Source: a phage. Taken from it: a stretch of 64,000 nt of DNA. Numbering within the stretch: position 1 is the first letter of the stretch; every line of letters starts with the position of its first letter. This document shows, one piece after another, positions 40,654 through 49,476 of the stretch. Under the pieces are notes generated by a model. It was given only the letters and a program-made list of their open reading frames with translations, made no database searches and was not told the origin of the DNA. Where the stretch lies: sequence record PZ171032.1, one strand, 5' to 3'. Both the position numbers and the translations under genes were made by a program.

Positions 40654-40774
40654 AGCACCGAGCCCACACAGGTTCCTCATGCTTTAGCATGGCCTGAAGA
40701 GGCAAACGTGCATAATTCCTGTGCATTGGAACGTATAAAACCCTGTTCACACTCTCATTTCCAGAGGAGATTTC

Positions 40775-40990
40775 ATGAAAATAGAAATATTTGGTGGGGC
40801 TGACAACACTCGTGGCCTGATTTACCTTGAATTCGATGAATCATACCTGCCAGAGGTGTTAAATATGGACTCTGTTGCTGAGGCTTTGGGGGTAAGTCCT
40901 AAAGAACTCCACTCTTGTGCTGAGATCGATGGTTGGGAAGAGACCATGAACATTGATTTCAGTGAAGTAGGTGATGAACCGCTGGACTGA
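40775..40990 (+). CDS. small acidic protein (family A-like), last gene of the rightward block
   Basis: MKIEIFGG... acidic C-terminus. Confidence 0.45.
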   Translation: MKIEIFGGADNTRGLIYLEFDESYLPEVLNMDSVAEALGVSPKELHSCAEIDGWEETMNIDFSEVGDEPLD

Positions 40991-41119
40991 CACACAATAT
41001 TAGATGTCCGGCTAAAGTGCTGGAAGCACCTATAGCATATCTTTCAACTAAATTTCCTACCACCACAATCACTTACCTCCCACACATGACTGTTTGCTTG
41101 TTTAGTGAGCAGTCATGCC

Positions 41120-41147
41120 TTGACATTCTTGCCTATCCTGATAAAAT
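41120..41147 (+). promoter_or_regulatory. candidate sigma70 promoter (TTGACA-16-TAAAAT) firing into the ORF-free region
   Basis: Read directly; no ORF of 60 aa or more follows for about 900 bp. Confidence 0.4.
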
Positions 41148-42489
41148 TAAGTTCTTCTCTTTTCTTTTACCGAGTAATTCGGGTTTTCTGTTCTCTTCGG
41201 TTTGAAGGGGTATGGAGATACACCTGAGTGAACAGGGTGAACAACCGAACATTCGGCTATGGCATTAGCATGGCGAAGCGAACGGGTGACGAAAGAGGGG
41301 CCGGAGGACACCAGTCACTGCCATATGATATATGGGTGATAACCTGAAGAGTCTGAATAAGTGTTTAAGTACCAGTCAGAGGAAAAGGTGAATGGTAGCC
41401 GAAGGGGGAGGGGGGGTTTCTTGTATCTTTAATTTGTATATTATGTATACACTTGTAAACCAATTTCATCTGAATCTGTTTACCATACAAAGTGGATTGA
41501 GACAAATATTACCTATTAAACTTGAATTATTTATAGAAAATACCACAACACACCTTAAGTCTTTGATTTTACACATAAATCCTACAGATATTCAACCTCC
41601 ATATTTAACATACTTGTAACATATCCTATACCACACCTGCCTGATCAATTTCCCCAACTACATCCTCTATATTTTACCTGCCTGTACTACCCCTGCCCCG
41701 CCGGGAGTCCCGTCATATCTGGCTTTCCAGCAAATATCCCACCAACAAATATCATTGCCTGAAGAGGGTTTCATCCCATAATACATGCCTTATCTGAAGA
41801 GCGCTTCATACACCACGTAAATTTTTTAATTGACCCCTCCCCGCCGCCGGAGAGGTTGGCTTTTCCCACACAGACCTGAAGAGTCAGCCAGAAATATCTG
41901 AATAGGCCCAATTCTACCACGATTTTGACCTGACCTACAGGGAGGCCCGAAGGGTCTAGCTTTCAGCTAGAGTCCTTGCAGGACCTACAGGAGTGCTGCC
42001 AGGCGGACGGAATGGGAATACTTCTCATTTTTATAATAATTCTCAAATATCGAGGCAGTGAGGCAAATTAATAGGTGAGGCCGTTCACACAGTGGCACAA
42101 CATTTGCAACCTATCTTGTGTGGGGGAATGATAATACCTATCATTGTGAGAACCATTATCATTACGGGCAATTTAACATAATACCCATTATGCGCACCAC
42201 TGGCGATACATACAGGGATTGATAACATGAGTTACAGTTTACGCATATAACAATTATATTTCTTATCATTTGTGTGGGATATAGTTAGCAGCCAATAGAT
42301 TAGATATTGACCTGCATACTTCCAACCGTCTAGACGTCTAAACGCCCACACACCAAGGATTATACATACACTCCTGAATGTAAACAGGGCCGCAAAAATG
42401 CTACCATACAAGCTTGTAAATTTTTCATGCAGCACTTGACAAAGAGGAGAAAAACTTGTCTGACATAATGTGACCTAACTGACACAACA

Positions 42490-42590
42490 TGACACTTTTA
42501 CACACCTATTAGTTTACACACTGGATTGTTTACATTCCTGATTGTTCACATGCTAACCATTTACATGATTGACTGTTTACACACCGATAA
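42490..42590. repeat. iteron-like array: six copies of a TTTACA(C/T)-containing motif at roughly 15-bp spacing
   Basis: Read directly: cTTTTACACAcc, aGTTTACACAct, tGTTTACATtc, tGTTCACATgc, cATTTACATga, tGTTTACACAcc. Confidence 0.6.
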
Positions 42591-42594
42591 TCAG

Positions 42595-42843
42595 CCATGC
42601 CATTCGTTTGCATGACAATAATTATACATGACAATAATCGCACTGATTATAATTAGCATGACATAATATAAAAGCAGGGCAACTATTAGCAGATCTATAG
42701 TTGCCCTGCTTGTTATGTCATGATTAACTAAATACAAGGCAACTATGATCTGATTAATAGTTTGCAGACAAACTATCACGGGGGTGATGGTTACTGCTTT
42801 TATATTATGTCGCGACTCCGTCGCGCCATGCCATTCGTTTGCA
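42595..42843. repeat. direct repeat pair CCATGCCATTCGTTTGCAT (about 230 bp apart) flanking a perfect 14-bp-stem palindrome (42673-42710) and CATGACAATAAT repeats
   Basis: Read directly. Confidence 0.6.
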
Positions 42844-43454
42844 TAGTTGCCTTATTGTTACAGGTAAAATAATTACATTATTAATTATTTCTTATCTTTC
42901 TCTTAGTCATCTAATGATTCCAGTCAGTATAGTAATGTACAGTAAACATTAGACGACTAAATATTTCTATGCTTATGATAACTTGCCGTGACAATTTCGG
43001 ACTGTTTACGAAAAATGTTGACACCTGGGCGGGTTTATGTTATGCAGTTTACACGAATAATTATTTCATACAGGTATTGACTATTCCGTTATTCTGTGGT
43101 TGGAATAAATACTTTGCAGGCTATAGAATGGTGTGCGTACGTGAATTCTAAGATCTGGCGGCTATAGTTACACCCGATTTTTCACGTAGAACACGCTTTT
43201 TGGTTTGTGTAAGTGTATGACTTATAAAGATTTTTAGTTGTTGACAGGATATTGAAGATGTGCATCAGGTTAAATTTTGTGCAATAGCTGCAGTACGTGC
43301 ATTTTTGGAAGGAAAAACGTGTAAAAATGGTCCTGCTACCACATAATGAAAGATTATGCAATAGCTATTTTATATGTATATTTGTACAGTGTGTGGGATT
43401 GATGGCTCGTCAATTATTCCACTTGCTGGGTGGGGCCGTTTGTGGTAGGAGGAG

Positions 43455-43486
43455 AGCAGACAAAAAGAAAGGGGCCTAAGCCCCTT
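43455..43486 (-). terminator. rho-independent terminator for the leftward block (AAGGGGC-ttag-GCCCCTT + TCTTTTTGTCTG on minus strand)
   Basis: Read directly, just downstream of the last minus-strand gene. Confidence 0.7.
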
Positions 43487-43505
43487 GATAATGTAAATTG
43501 TTGTA

Positions 43506-44106: not shown

Positions 44107-44318
44107 AATGTTTTCCTCTCTTCTGGTTGTTGTGTGGGCACTTTTGCCCCTTCAAGATAAATGATACCCCCACCACCTGGCAGATGTCAACGGTTTTTAT
44201 AGTTTTTTATATAACAGGCACCCACGGTGATTGTCTCCCCCCGTCGCCAAGTGCCACCCGTGAGACAAGTATACCAAAAAACAGGACCATTGCAAGCCCT
44301 GTTTATAGTCTATAAGGA

Positions 44319-47472: not shown

Positions 47473-47670
47473 TTATTTTTTATTAAACCAGTGGTTGATC
47501 TGGCCTTTTGTCAGGGCGCAACGATTAAGCTGTTGCCGGGTATAGCTCTGACCGCGACGGAATTTATAAAGGCCTTGCCCGTTGTTGATGGTTACGTCCA
47601 CCTGGCAAACCATTTGATCGGTGACGGCCTGGCGAGTGTTGCGACGTACTTTAATTCCGTAGGCGTTCAT
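47473..47670 (-). CDS. hypothetical basic protein
   Basis: 65-aa ORF. Confidence 0.4.
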   Translation of the reverse strand: MNAYGIKVRRNTRQAVTDQMVCQVDVTINNGQGLYKFRRGQSYTRQQLNRCALTKGQINHWFNKK

Positions 47671-47687
47671 GATTTTTATCCTCTCTG

Positions 47688-47930
47688 TTAATTAGTGTGG
47701 TGTTGTTCACCTTGCGAGGATAAGAATAACAGAACTATCCGAGCTGTCAACCATTGGTTAGAATTATTTTTTGGGCAGAATTCTCCAGCCGCCGCCCCTG
47801 CCAGGTTAACCATCATTTTTTCGTACTCTTCTTTATGTTCCAACGCTCCCGCCATAGCCTTTTCAACCAGGGTGATAGCCTCAGCGTCATTAATCGCTAC
47901 ATTTCCCAGGTGAGTAGCATTACCTTTCAT
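47688..47930 (-). CDS. hypothetical protein
   Basis: 80-aa ORF; GGAGG SD. Confidence 0.45.
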   Translation of the reverse strand: MKGNATHLGNVAINDAEAITLVEKAMAGALEHKEEYEKMMVNLAGAAAGEFCPKNNSNQWLTARIVLLFLSSQGEQHHTN

Positions 47931-48087
47931 TTTTGCACCTCCTCTTCAATTGTTTACCCTACAGCATGGGCCTACCAGGTTTGCAAGATTTCACCCTCTC
48001 CCACCTGGTCAGTTAGGTCCTGCCAGGCTGGCCCCGCCAGGTTGCAACGGTTAGCGCATCAGGTTAGAAAAATTTTTTGAAAAGGTG

Positions 48088-48116
48088 TTGACAGCGGCCC
48101 CGCCAGGTGGCACAAT
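48088..48116 (+). promoter_or_regulatory. candidate plus-strand promoter (TTGACA-17-CACAAT) inside the leftward block, preceded by four CCAGGT(T/G)GCA-like repeats
   Basis: Read directly. Confidence 0.4.
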
Positions 48117-48119
48117 ATA

Positions 48120-48230
48120 CCTATCGAAAGGACGGCAGGCACCGGTGACGGGGGAGACAACCACCGGGGATGGGCGCTGCATAAAATGAGAACGGTTATC
48201 ATTATCATTTAAAAATTTATGCAAAAAATC
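48120..48230 (+). ncRNA. candidate small RNA unit 1 (structured, GC-rich stem then AT-rich tail)
   Basis: Downstream of promoter; CCGGTG...CACCGG stem, GAGACAA core, GCATAAA...TTTATGC inverted repeat. Homologous to unit 2. Confidence 0.3.
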
Positions 48231-48264
48231 CTTGCCTTCTTTGTCCTGTGTGATACTATAATAA

Positions 48265-48360
48265 CAAGCCGGGGCAACAGGGGCCGGGAGACAATCACCG
48301 GGCCTGCCCGTTATTCTGCAAACGAGAATGATTATCATTCAAAATTCTAAATGAGAACTC
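48265..48360 (+). ncRNA. candidate small RNA unit 2 (paralog of unit 1)
   Basis: Own promoter-like site (TTGCCT ... TATAAT at 48232-48262); shares GGGAGACAAnCACCGGG and GAGAAnGnTTATCATT blocks with unit 1. Confidence 0.3.
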
Positions 48361-48459
48361 CTCGCATTTAATAAATTTAATTAGCACGCTAATTACCCTC
48401 CGTAACAATTTCCTATAAAATAGTATCCACTAAAATATTCCCATATAGAAATTTTAAAA

Positions 48460-48640
48460 ATCCATTTCTGAAAACGAAAAATCGATTTCGTCCCCAAAAA
48501 TTTCAGGTCGAGAGCCGGAACGATTTCCAGAAAATCCGATTCAGAAAACGAAAAACAGATCGAGTACTGAGAAATTTATCGAGAAAAATTTTCAGAAAAT
48601 TCAATCTTTGAAACGAAAAACAGATCGAGTACTTGGAAAG
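48460..48640. repeat. three degenerate tandem repeats of about 68 bp, each with GAAAACGAAAAA(C/T)AGATCGAGTACT core
   Basis: Read directly at about 48467, 48540 and 48607. Confidence 0.6.
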
Positions 48641-48943
48641 CTGCGCCACAACTTCAAGGTAGTGGTTGGATTATTACTATAAAAGGTCAAGGGTAAGTGG
48701 GGGAAGTTCTAGTAGAAGGGTGTGAGCATGTGCGGGAAATCTGTAATGGTGGTCTGGAATATGGTGCAGACGATAGGATGAGTGGTTCATCTCGTCGTGC
48801 CTGCTCTGAAAAATCCATTTTAGTTTTCGATCCATTTTCTGATTTTCTAAGGATTTTAAAATATCCTGGTAGGTAAAATATCAAAAGGAGGAAATCCATT
48901 TTAGAAATCCTCCTGATCTCTGGCAACCTGATAACTTAAAATA

Positions 48944-49276
48944 TCAGGCTCCCAGTGTGTTCTTTCCTTTATACAACCGTAAGGGTATAGTTTTTGTAAC
49001 AGTCCATCTCCCCAGCCCTTCCCAGTTCCAGTTGTAGGCATGGTACCCGGTTACGCATGCACTGCTGGAGTGATCATAGGCATAAGAGAACGCTATACGC
49101 ACCAAATGAAACCAGTCTTTCCACGGTTGTGGTCCGTAAGCTTTTCTCCAACACCGACACAAGCTAAATGTCTCAAGAATAGGCAGGATAACAAATCCAT
49201 ACACCGCCACCAGAATAGCCAACGCAATGATTGTCAGGAATACATACCCTGCAGTTGAAACGATGATCTCTGTCAT
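48944..49276 (-). CDS. membrane protein (two or more TM helices)
   Basis: IIVSTAGYVFLTIIALAILVAVYGFVILPI. Confidence 0.5.
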   Translation of the reverse strand: MTEIIVSTAGYVFLTIIALAILVAVYGFVILPILETFSLCRCWRKAYGPQPWKDWFHLVRIAFSYAYDHSSSACVTGYHAYNWNWEGLGRWTVTKTIPLRLYKGKNTLGA

Positions 49277-49476
49277 TTGTCGTCCCCTTTCTTATGGATA
49301 TAGATATGAGAGCCTGCCTGTATATAAATTTCTCGACCATCTTCTGCAAAGATATGAAATACACGATCACCTTCATACTCGATACGAGATATCTTCATAA
49401 TGGTCTTTCCACCTGGGATACGGATCTCGTCCCCCACAGCGATGTTCCATGCAGATTTAAGCTTAAACATCTGCAC
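49273..49476 (-). CDS. hypothetical protein
   Basis: 67-aa ORF. Confidence 0.4.
   Translation of the reverse strand: MQMFKLKSAWNIAVGDEIRIPGGKTIMKISRIEYEGDRVFHIFAEDGREIYIQAGSHIYIHKKGDDK

Follow-up and report, generated by a model that had tools for sequence, protein, structure and literature searches.

An island of 1013 bp without genes lies at positions 47931-48943 of the 64,000-nucleotide stretch of phage DNA that we analyzed (record PZ171032.1, referred to here as the window), in the gap between the genes 47688-47930 and 48944-49276. We consider it most likely, at a probability of roughly 0.4, that this island is an essential cis-acting non-coding element that serves as a replication origin activated by transcription and gated by the host iron sensor Fur, rather than a free-standing pair of small RNAs, which an earlier note made from the sequence alone had suggested. 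The phages that carry it, both rV5-like and phAPEC8-like, are candidates for broad-host-range therapy. Skew analysis in the rV5 genome paper sought a replication origin and found none (PMC3606486). Among the papers that could be searched, we found nothing on the island locus, its RNAs, or Fur boxes in these phages when looking for Fur boxes, small RNAs, and origins in the Vequintavirinae.

A gene-free island conserved as DNA and intolerant of insertions

Across positions 47600-49300 the window shares 99.9% identity with Escherichia phage naam, an rV5-like Vequintavirus, and 122 phage records match this interval at 80% identity or more. Collinearity with naam is lost to the left of 44875, so the window is a mosaic relative to that phage. 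The annotated genes around the island are all on the minus strand and form a leftward block. The records of naam, isim, and YP-6 leave the island unannotated, and small minus-strand open reading frames (ORFs) have been called inside it in rV5 (ORF198), in the BASEL phages Bas54-56, and in PMBT16. A scan for tRNA and tmRNA genes found none.

These minus-strand ORFs are spurious, as the earlier note had suspected for the ORF at 48051-48338. Among 11 rV5-like genomes this ORF shows no third-position bias, with 10, 14, and 11 variable columns by codon position (a further count for the island ORFs is 12/12/11), unlike the real neighboring genes (21/23/30, 67/61/87, and 5/7/12). Frameshifting indels change the frame of its C-terminus in 7 of the 11 genomes, and a deletion in Bas56, which is viable, shortens the ORF from 95 to 27 residues. 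In other genera the DNA is conserved, yet no frame is: the ORFs annotated in the repeat region of PVP-SE1 (gp202), GAP31 (043A, described as having a 'poor RBS', or ribosome-binding site), and Mydo (054) are 1- and 2-nt indels apart and fail to align as proteins although the DNA aligns well. The start codons of the island ORFs are TTG or GTG. The ORFs at 48051-48338, 48393-48497, and 48503-48649 are annotated in several of the phages named above and were classed as essential or as having a strong defect in a transposon screen, but from the codon and indel data it is very improbable that they encode real essential proteins.

That screen, HIDEN-SEQ, mapped Himar1 insertions in Bas54 (10.1101/2025.11.20.689424), which we traced to phage MaxBurger (MZ501093), a phage that shares 96% identity with the window. 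The number of TA sites that we counted in each ORF agrees exactly with the preprint's table. In the reference library, insertions were found at 5/15 TA sites of bas54_0102 (window 48064-48338; 'strong fitness defect'), 0/11 of bas54_0101 (48393-48497; 'essential'), and 1/3 of bas54_0100 (48503-48649), and in the first library, which was independent, at 2/15, 0/11, and 0/3, respectively. Mean read counts for the three intervals were 12.7, 0.0, and 5.0, compared with 150-790 next door, and the flanking genes were hit at 12/14 and 18/21 of their TA sites (10.1101/2025.11.20.689424). Polar effects were rejected as the cause of essentiality since the six genes that separate the island from the next essential one accept insertions, with 91-100% of their TA sites hit in the reference library (10.1101/2025.11.20.689424). 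The authors of the preprint count the island intervals among essential proteins of unknown function (10.1101/2025.11.20.689424). Given the intolerance to transposons and the failed coding tests, the essential entity is non-coding DNA or its RNA. Thus, two 'essential hypothetical proteins' of the screen can be re-read as one essential non-coding element with its parts defined to the base. That the core is essential in a near-identical phage argues for a cis-acting element rather than an accessory regulatory RNA. In practical terms, the spurious ORFs should leave the annotations, and regions that should not be disturbed in phage engineering are now flagged.

Comparison of the 11 rV5-like genomes in 50-bp intervals showed that 48100-48600 is the most conserved part of the 2-kb neighborhood. 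Most intervals there have 0-16% variable columns (24% at 48400-48449), compared with 46-78% on the right side and 10-39% on the left. This low variation indicates purifying selection on the DNA. In more distant relatives only 48223-48380 aligns by blastn, at 70-88% identity; these matches come from phAPEC8-like phages, Mydovirus, Seunavirus, Certrevirus, and Henunavirus and always lie in a gene-free gap in the leftward block. All share a plan that begins with a leftward promoter, followed by rightward sigma70 promoters with GC-rich CCNGG spacers and then by the promoter we call P2, before which some genera have a 60-aa ORF and a structured 'RNA-1'. After P2 come a hairpin of about 50 nt with G(A)GACAAnCACC, one to four copies of a 19-bp palindrome, a third promoter, three repeats, a variable stretch, and AAATATC repeats. 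Vequintavirus lacks RNA-1 and the small ORF and has a second P2 module (unit 1, below) in their place; accordingly, neither PVP-SE1 gp201, which is the 60-aa ORF, nor RNA-1 has a counterpart in the naam genome.

Tandem promoters, paralogous hairpins, and Fur boxes

A plus-strand promoter at 48088 and a second promoter-like site at 48232-48262, transcribed against the surrounding block, had been predicted previously. Both were found, both are of the sigma70 type, and both face rightward in a neighborhood where all annotated genes are leftward. P1 (48088-48116, plus strand) is TTGACA-17-CACAAT with a TG before the -10 element and a score of 10/12. Its 17-nt spacer is GC-rich and contains CCAGG, and the promoter is invariant in the 11 rV5-like genomes except for a change of CACAAT to CAAAAT. 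P2 (48231-48258, plus strand) is TTGCCT-16-TACTAT with an extended -10 element (TGn). Its positional homologues in other genera are TTGATC/TATTAT, TTGCAA/TATATT, TTGACC/GATAAT, and TTGCTT/TATTCT. The hexamers of the rightward promoters thus keep their position across five genera and the spacers vary.

Each promoter is followed by a leader with a hairpin. The unit 1 leader (48122-48183, plus strand) displays GGGAGACAACCACC and is 98-100% conserved. The unit 2 leader (48264-48314, plus strand), which belongs to a family that we call 'RNA-2', displays GGGAGACAATCACC, is conserved in other genera at 70-88% identity, and is matched by covariance model R1 with 20.9 bits (E = 0.008). The units are about 135 bp apart and their shared blocks are spaced 134-136 bp. 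The shared GGGAGACAAnCACC block is located in the promoter-proximal hairpin, GGGAGACAAnCACCGGG occurs at 48152 and 48286 with a third copy on the minus strand at 44223-44239 (3 matches compared with 0.27 expected; another motif count is 7 compared with 0.81), and the shared GAGAAnGnTTATCATT block is found at 48188 and 48324. Bas56 (AlexBoehm) has an exact 134-bp deletion of 48152-48285 that joins units 1 and 2 at GGGAGACAA. This fusion bears out the proposal that the units are duplicated; they are recombining paralogues, and one hybrid unit suffices.

A third paralogue, unit 3, is located outside the island on the minus strand (44211-44295). It comprises a promoter, with its -35 element (44295-44290) inside the terminator loop of the upstream gene and its -10 element at 44273-44268, a hairpin with GGGGAGACAATCACC (44211-44252), and then another promoter that has the same CCAGGTGG spacer as P1. 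In the window phage unit 3 has no Fur box. Homologues of it are present in phAPEC8 and ZCKP1. The sequence GAGACAAnCACC occurs exactly three times in the genome, in units 1, 2, and 3, and each time directly after a sigma70-like promoter. A covariance model built from five genera recovers unit 2 in all relatives and detects extra paralogues about 7 kb away on the opposite strand in the related loci L141, L133, and L135, where a terminator/promoter and a hairpin are followed by ATTC-N4-AATGAGAAT.

Support for an RNA structure in this hairpin is modest. There is covariation in the module, although the excess is small, with 89.0% paired cells compared with 86.9% in shuffles; four pairs are changed on both sides (15/500 shuffles reach this) and there are 9 extra pair types compared with 6.0 (1/500). 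The GC stems had been described as stable, but their stability is like that of shuffled sequence, with unit 1 a marginal exception (z = -2.1 for unit 1, -0.9 for unit 2, and about -0.1 for unit 3; -2.1 to +0.1 overall). An Rfam search with the island, the whole window, and six homologous loci gave no match at the gathering score, the sole sub-threshold hit being the Lst thermometer (22 bits compared with a threshold of 126). No plus-strand intrinsic terminator was found in the island, in PVP-SE1, or in Mydo. The units, each with its own promoter, bear little resemblance to discrete small RNAs, given the missing terminators and Rfam match and folding energies that are largely ordinary.

Several other candidates for the hairpin region were rejected. 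A second hairpin, AUUCU/AGAAU, just before the Fur box has a 5' arm that mutates without compensation in Mydo, phiTE, and L135. Loops of the CsrA type with GGA do not hold in PVP-SE1 and phAPEC8, which carry GCGAGACAA without GGA. The module and tandem Fur boxes had no BLAST match in 5,426 E. coli genomes, and derivation from a host promoter or small RNA was rejected on this ground, although short sites could be masked by the low-complexity filter. When viral contigs were scanned with the 14-base GGGAGACAANCACCG, only chance matches came up.

Judged by sequence, the GAGAAnGnTTATCATT blocks shared by the two units are canonical operators of the Fur family. Boxes A and A' (48185-48209) are AATGAGAACGGTTATCATT and AACGGTTATCATTATCATT, which overlap with a 6-bp offset (48185 and 48191); box B (48321-48339) is AACGAGAATGATTATCATT, and the weak box C (48350-48368) is AATGAGAACTCCTCGCATT. 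There is one mismatch to AATGAKAATNATTMTCATT at 48321, two at 48185, and three at 48191. The consensus of the island palindromes is AATGAGAAT-N-ATTCTCATT, and the pattern that we used in searches was the 19-bp 9-1-9 palindrome AATGA(T/G)AAT-N-ATT(A/C)TCATT, which corresponds to GATAATGATAATCATTATC, the 19-mer of E. coli. Scored against this 19-mer, sites reach 16/19 and 15/19, with 16 hits compared with 3.6 in shuffles, and the best such site of the 64-kb window (16/19) is the region of boxes A and A'. A degenerate version of the pattern gave 8 sites in the window compared with 0.16 expected. In the whole 137-kb naam genome and the window together, 7/9 sites fall within two gene-free islands.

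The same palindrome is found in front of bacterial genes. The Xanthomonas Fur consensus AATGAgAATcATTctCATT equals the island palindrome, and the E. faecalis Fur sites TGAGAATGATTCTCA are contained in it (PMC1790865, PMC6056675). In a scan of 185,579 species genomes, the exact 19-mer AATGAGAATNATTCTCATT was found in at least 120 bacterial genome contigs (more than 120 were counted) from many phyla. Ten hand-picked downstream neighbors encode a TonB-dependent receptor, Fur (twice), an iron-type substrate-binding protein, FTR1, an extracytoplasmic function (ECF) sigma factor of the FecI type, FeoB, FeoA, a siderophore-type ABC ATPase, and ferritin. The first nine neighbors taken in list order are ZIP, ZnuA (twice), AhpC, an ECF sigma factor, a siderophore monooxygenase, and three unknowns, so that 6/9 are related to metals or peroxide.

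The half-sites of the palindromes vary without compensation, having G or T at position 6 and A or C at position 14. This argues that the palindromes are DNA sites and not RNA stems; a Fur palindrome folded as an RNA hairpin was rejected since the asymmetric half-sites would give G.A mismatches. The second block shared by the units had been listed as part of putative structured RNAs; from its match to bacterial Fur sites it reads as a host Fur operator in DNA and not as an RNA motif. Boxes A and B are 136 bp apart, or 12.95 helical turns, and bracket P2. Other genera have one to four such boxes at the equivalent place.

A candidate replication origin and its alternatives

Downstream of P1 and P2 the GC content of 48350-48500 falls to 28-30%. 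The AT-rich core within it, which includes the first repeat, spans 48393-48497 (28-30% GC) and is equivalent to bas54_0101. Three tandem repeat units of about 57 nt each are located at 48444-48500, 48518-48574, and 48583-48639, with a spacing of 74 and 65 bp and an identity of 63-79%. Their earlier description as three tandem repeats of about 68 bp was therefore fair, though Tandem Repeats Finder does not score them. Each unit holds GAAAAT(C)C.ATT, GAAAACGAAAAA, and (CA)GATCGAGTACT. The repeats are A-rich with phased A-tracts, and GATC is kept in only two of the three units. The repeat motifs of the array are absent elsewhere in the 137-kb genome, making it a single-site element. Homologous three-unit arrays with a spacing of 67/75 bp are present in PVP-SE1, GAP31, Mydo, and Hena1, and the repeats of other genera read GAAAAATTTTTTCG .. 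GAAAAAATACG .. TTGAAAAAC. GATCGAGAAC with a spacing of 67 and 74-76 bp. The array is followed by a variable stretch (48640-48800) whose plus strand is rich in G (GC skew +0.56 to +0.63) and which is the least conserved part, with 46-67% of columns varying among the 11 relatives. The AT-rich core and the G-rich plus strand downstream would fit a site of DNA unwinding or R-loop formation.

In the model that we favor, host RNA polymerase would start rightward at the tandem early sigma70 promoters P1 and P2 (three promoters in other genera), and each transcript would open with the conserved hairpin and meet a Fur operator about 55-80 nt past its start. Transcription that continues past the Fur boxes would enter the 28-30% GC stretch and then the genome-unique array of three A-tract/GATC repeats of about 70 bp, and it may open or prime this AT-rich/repeat element as an origin. 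Iron-loaded Fur on the boxes would gate the read-through, tying origin firing to the iron status of the host. The lack of plus-strand terminators suggests that transcripts run into the repeat array. Like known origins, the island has promoters directed into an AT-rich region and clustered genome-unique repeats with conserved spacing. It resembles the primary origin of T7 (phi1.1A/1.1B) and oriF/oriG of T4, where promoters (tandem in T7) are directed into an AT-rich or unwinding stretch, and it has no intervening terminator. Unlike in those origins, the island promoters are of the host sigma70 type, and three repeats and host Fur boxes are added. A primase-helicase of the T7 gp4 type is present in the phage family (rV5 gp230; PMC3606486).

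Several points weigh against this model. No initiator protein or repeat-binding partner was identified, and the conserved hairpin and its GAGACAAnCACC loop play no part in the proposed mechanism. The promoter-hairpin module also stands before ordinary genes away from repeat arrays (unit 3; L141, L133, and L135). The predicted Fur boxes are downstream of the promoters rather than over them, an unusual placement if Fur is to repress. Each of the T7 and T4 origins can be lost singly, whereas the island is needed for growth. Depletion of transposons could in principle be a selection artefact of the anti-CRISPR cargo. There is also a second place where an origin could be located instead. The preprint reports an insertion-free intergenic region of about 2 kb in Bas54 (10.1101/2025.11.20.689424) that maps to 40688-43492 of the window at 93.8% identity. 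The rightward (plus-strand) and leftward (minus-strand) blocks converge in this second large gene-free region, and it contains four Fur-like boxes (42011, 42127, 42145, and 42252) and many direct repeats of the TGTTTACA type. The distance between the two gene-free islands is 4.4 kb in the window and 10.6 kb in Bas54.

Other functions for the island have to be weighed against an origin. It could produce an essential RNA that acts in trans, either as short hairpin RNAs ending at Fur-bound DNA or as a repeat RNA of more than 500 nt, with the GAGACAAnCACC loop or the repeat modules serving as a sponge, guide, or scaffold that binds a factor of the host or the phage and with P3 involved in other genera. 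The strong conserved promoters, the conserved hairpin topology, the three copies of the loop motif that each come right after a promoter, conservation that is continuous over 500 nt, and the intolerance to transposons would all suit such an RNA, as would pairs changed on both sides (CCGG/CCGG to ACGG/CCGU in units 2 and 3, and GCGGG/CCCGC to GCAGG/CCUGC in Hena1). There is also a precedent for a functional non-coding RNA in this phage group, the pseudo-ToxI of phiTE (PMC3475682). However, the lack of terminators and of an Rfam family, hairpin energies like those of shuffled sequence, and covariation barely above controls all speak against it, and both the uncompensated half-sites of the palindromes and the A-rich repeats with phased A-tracts and GATC behave as is typical of DNA sites. 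We regard a trans-acting RNA as unlikely, though the most probable of the rivals. The likeness to pseudo-ToxI, a mimic of a Type III antitoxin in Certrevirus, is that of a tandemly repeated non-coding locus whose copy number is changed by recombination. The loci themselves differ, since pseudo-ToxI is at 106,714-106,772 of phiTE and the island homologue is at 39.5-40.2 kb, and the repeats are about 70 bp in the island compared with 36 nt. Identity with ToxI or pseudo-ToxI was rejected, as there is no ToxI similarity within 12 mismatches and the phiTE escape locus is elsewhere. A Type III antitoxin array was likewise rejected, with island repeats of 65-74 bp compared with 34-45 nt and no adjacent toxin ORF.

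A transcriptional switch or insulator controlled by Fur, without origin function, is another reading. Fur at boxes A and B, about 13 turns apart and flanking P2, would repress or road-block P1 and P2, and under low iron rightward antisense transcription would run into the upstream leftward early genes and re-program early expression. The hairpins would then serve, much like lambda nut or HK022 put, as cis signals close to the promoter. The identity and placement of the Fur boxes, the rightward promoters that face a leftward block, and the occurrence of a module of promoter, hairpin, and Fur-like box before ordinary promoters or genes (unit 3; L141, L133, and L135; phAPEC8) all favor a switch. 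It leaves unexplained why the AT-rich/repeat array is the most insertion-intolerant part (0/11) and why the array is unique in the genome with a spacing conserved across genera, and laboratory growth does not require the neighboring genes that the switch would regulate; we consider it rather improbable. An antitermination or regulatory hub is a further rival of this kind. Like nut and put, the island has a short conserved hairpin just downstream of early promoters in 2-3 copies per genome, but the module shows no similarity to boxA/boxB, its loop measures 10-14 nt, downstream of units 1 and 2 there are no genes for antitermination to act on, and no N-like protein was identified. Still less probable is a packaging initiation (pac) or DNA-processing site at which terminase would recognize the GATC repeats, as in phage P1, where pac has Dam-methylated hexamer repeats flanking the cut. 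An essential, genome-unique repeat array with GATC cores would fit this, the phage encodes adenine methyltransferases of which one is essential in Bas54, and relatives are described as circularly permuted and terminally redundant. Known pac sites are usually in or beside the small terminase gene, whereas about 80 kb separate the island from the terminase genes (in naam, terminase at 8.4-10.6 kb and the island at 87.9-88.9 kb). Packaging also provides no role for the tandem promoters or Fur boxes, and one of the three window units has lost GATC.

The transcription-activated origin would place host Fur operators in an unusual setting. Bacterial promoters regulated by Fur, such as the aerobactin iucA operator and those with the Xanthomonas consensus, share with the island 19-bp consensus palindromes, a 6-bp overlap, and clustering. 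The island differs in that its boxes are in a strictly lytic phage, in gene-free DNA, and without an iron-related gene under their control, and in that they follow one promoter at a distance of about 55-80 bp and precede the next rather than covering the -35 and -10 elements. In cyanophages, pho boxes and NtcA sites let host nutrient regulators act on auxiliary genes of lytic phages. A Fur box upstream of sitABCD is known on temperate lambda-like phages, where a host metal sensor is likewise predicted at a phage promoter region (PMC6969025). The sitABCD and cyanophage sites control transporter or auxiliary metabolic genes, whereas the island boxes are within an essential non-coding element. 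An essential gene-free element with Fur operators in strictly lytic coliphages would add a new form to these known kinds of site.

It is doubtful, though conceivable, that Fur operators inside an essential replication-control element make the host iron sensor a replication checkpoint in large lytic enterobacterial phages. If so, Vequintavirinae, phAPEC8-like phages, and possibly the phages of contigs L144, L134, and L132 (below) would share this iron checkpoint, and origin firing would be matched to the iron supply for the phage's own ribonucleotide reductase. This class I (di-iron) enzyme scored as essential in HIDEN-SEQ (10.1101/2025.11.20.689424), which would give Fur gating a plausible rationale. 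The module of promoter, hairpin, and Fur box might then be a new kind of conditional road-block or terminator. With Fur operators in both insertion-free, gene-free regions, a connection of the phage life cycle to iron in the host is open to direct testing.

Flanking elements and related loci

The inverted repeat AGGAGGA...TCCTCCT that had been noted downstream of the repeats is present (48886-48892 and 48908-48914), but we assign it to an intrinsic terminator (48871-48914, minus strand) of the leftward gene 48944-49276, in which the stem is followed by TTTTGATATTTT on the minus strand. Our terminator scan missed it because the loop is longer than 8 nt, and it was read directly from the sequence. 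Motif copies are scattered over 48811-48946, with AAATCCATTTT at 48811 and 48892 and AAAATATC(A/C) at 48858, 48875, and 48938; in other genera this end of the island is taken up by AAATATC repeats. The motif AAATCCATTT(T) occurs at 48458 and 48532 and again at 48811 and 48892. On the plus strand, cctggTAGGTAAAATAtc at 48863-48880 fits the T4-late-like motif TggTAaAAtA and points rightward, against the early block; this motif is found upstream of late genes in the rV5 paper (PMC3606486). A DnaA-like TATCCAC at 48424-48430 was set aside, as it is not conserved among rV5-like phages.

At the left end of the island, two of the four CCAGGT(T/G)GCA repeats reported earlier are strong (GGCCCCGCCAGGT(T/G)GCA at 48030 and 48096, 94%), and the remaining pair is weak (70-75%). 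The CCAGGTTGCA repeats correspond in part to leftward TTGCAAcctgg -35 boxes. These TTGCAA(n)CCTGG -35-like boxes are located at 48047-48042 and 47986-47981 on the minus strand, in repeated GC-rich modules (47975-48050), and are candidate promoters for the gene 47688-47930, with weak -10 elements. The copy number of the leftward box varies between relatives; positions of about 47970-48020 are deleted in PMBT16, slur16, YP-6, and JEP1, with the loss of one leftward promoter-like repeat.

In Seunavirus and Mydovirus the rightward 60-aa ORF (PVP-SE1 gp201) opens the island (L124, 1097-1279 on the plus strand; L126, 1073-1258; L129, 1069-1260). At its position phiTE has an unrelated 143-aa ORF, and Vequintavirus has none. 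RNA-1 (L124, 1330-1425; also in L125-L130) is a conserved stretch of about 90 nt with its own promoter just upstream of P2. Its ACGCC...GGCG hairpin has a loop, CCCC or CCAA, that changes in step with GGGG or UUGG further downstream, as in a pseudoknot. RNA-1 also has a hairpin of variable length, ACCAGG..CCUGGU, and has no Rfam match. A direct repeat, TGTAAAGA-N2-(T/C)GTAAAGA, is located just upstream of the -35 element of P2 and of another early promoter (L124, 1436-1455; L126, 1416-1435; L125, about 1480-1500; L141, 4750-4730 on the minus strand) and is absent from the window. It fits GTAAA-N5-GTAAA, which we take to be the CpxR consensus. This CpxR-like pattern, which other genera have upstream of P2, was rejected for the island, as the window shows no enrichment of it.

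Three unrelated viral contigs, L144 (5195-5800), L134 (13590-13640, minus strand), and L132 (1240-1300), have 2-3 perfect tandem AATGAGAATGATTCTCA(TT) boxes next to direct repeats. Those of L144 number three and adjoin both iterons and a pair of DnaA boxes, TTATCCACA, an arrangement that speaks for the origin model. CACC-N5-CTGCCTGCTATTCC is common to the module and the 347-kb contig L132. Finally, the matches to 47600-49300 include 16 records labeled 'Campylobacter phage'; with 84-96% identity to coliphages of the rV5-like or phAPEC8-like kind, they probably bear wrong host labels.

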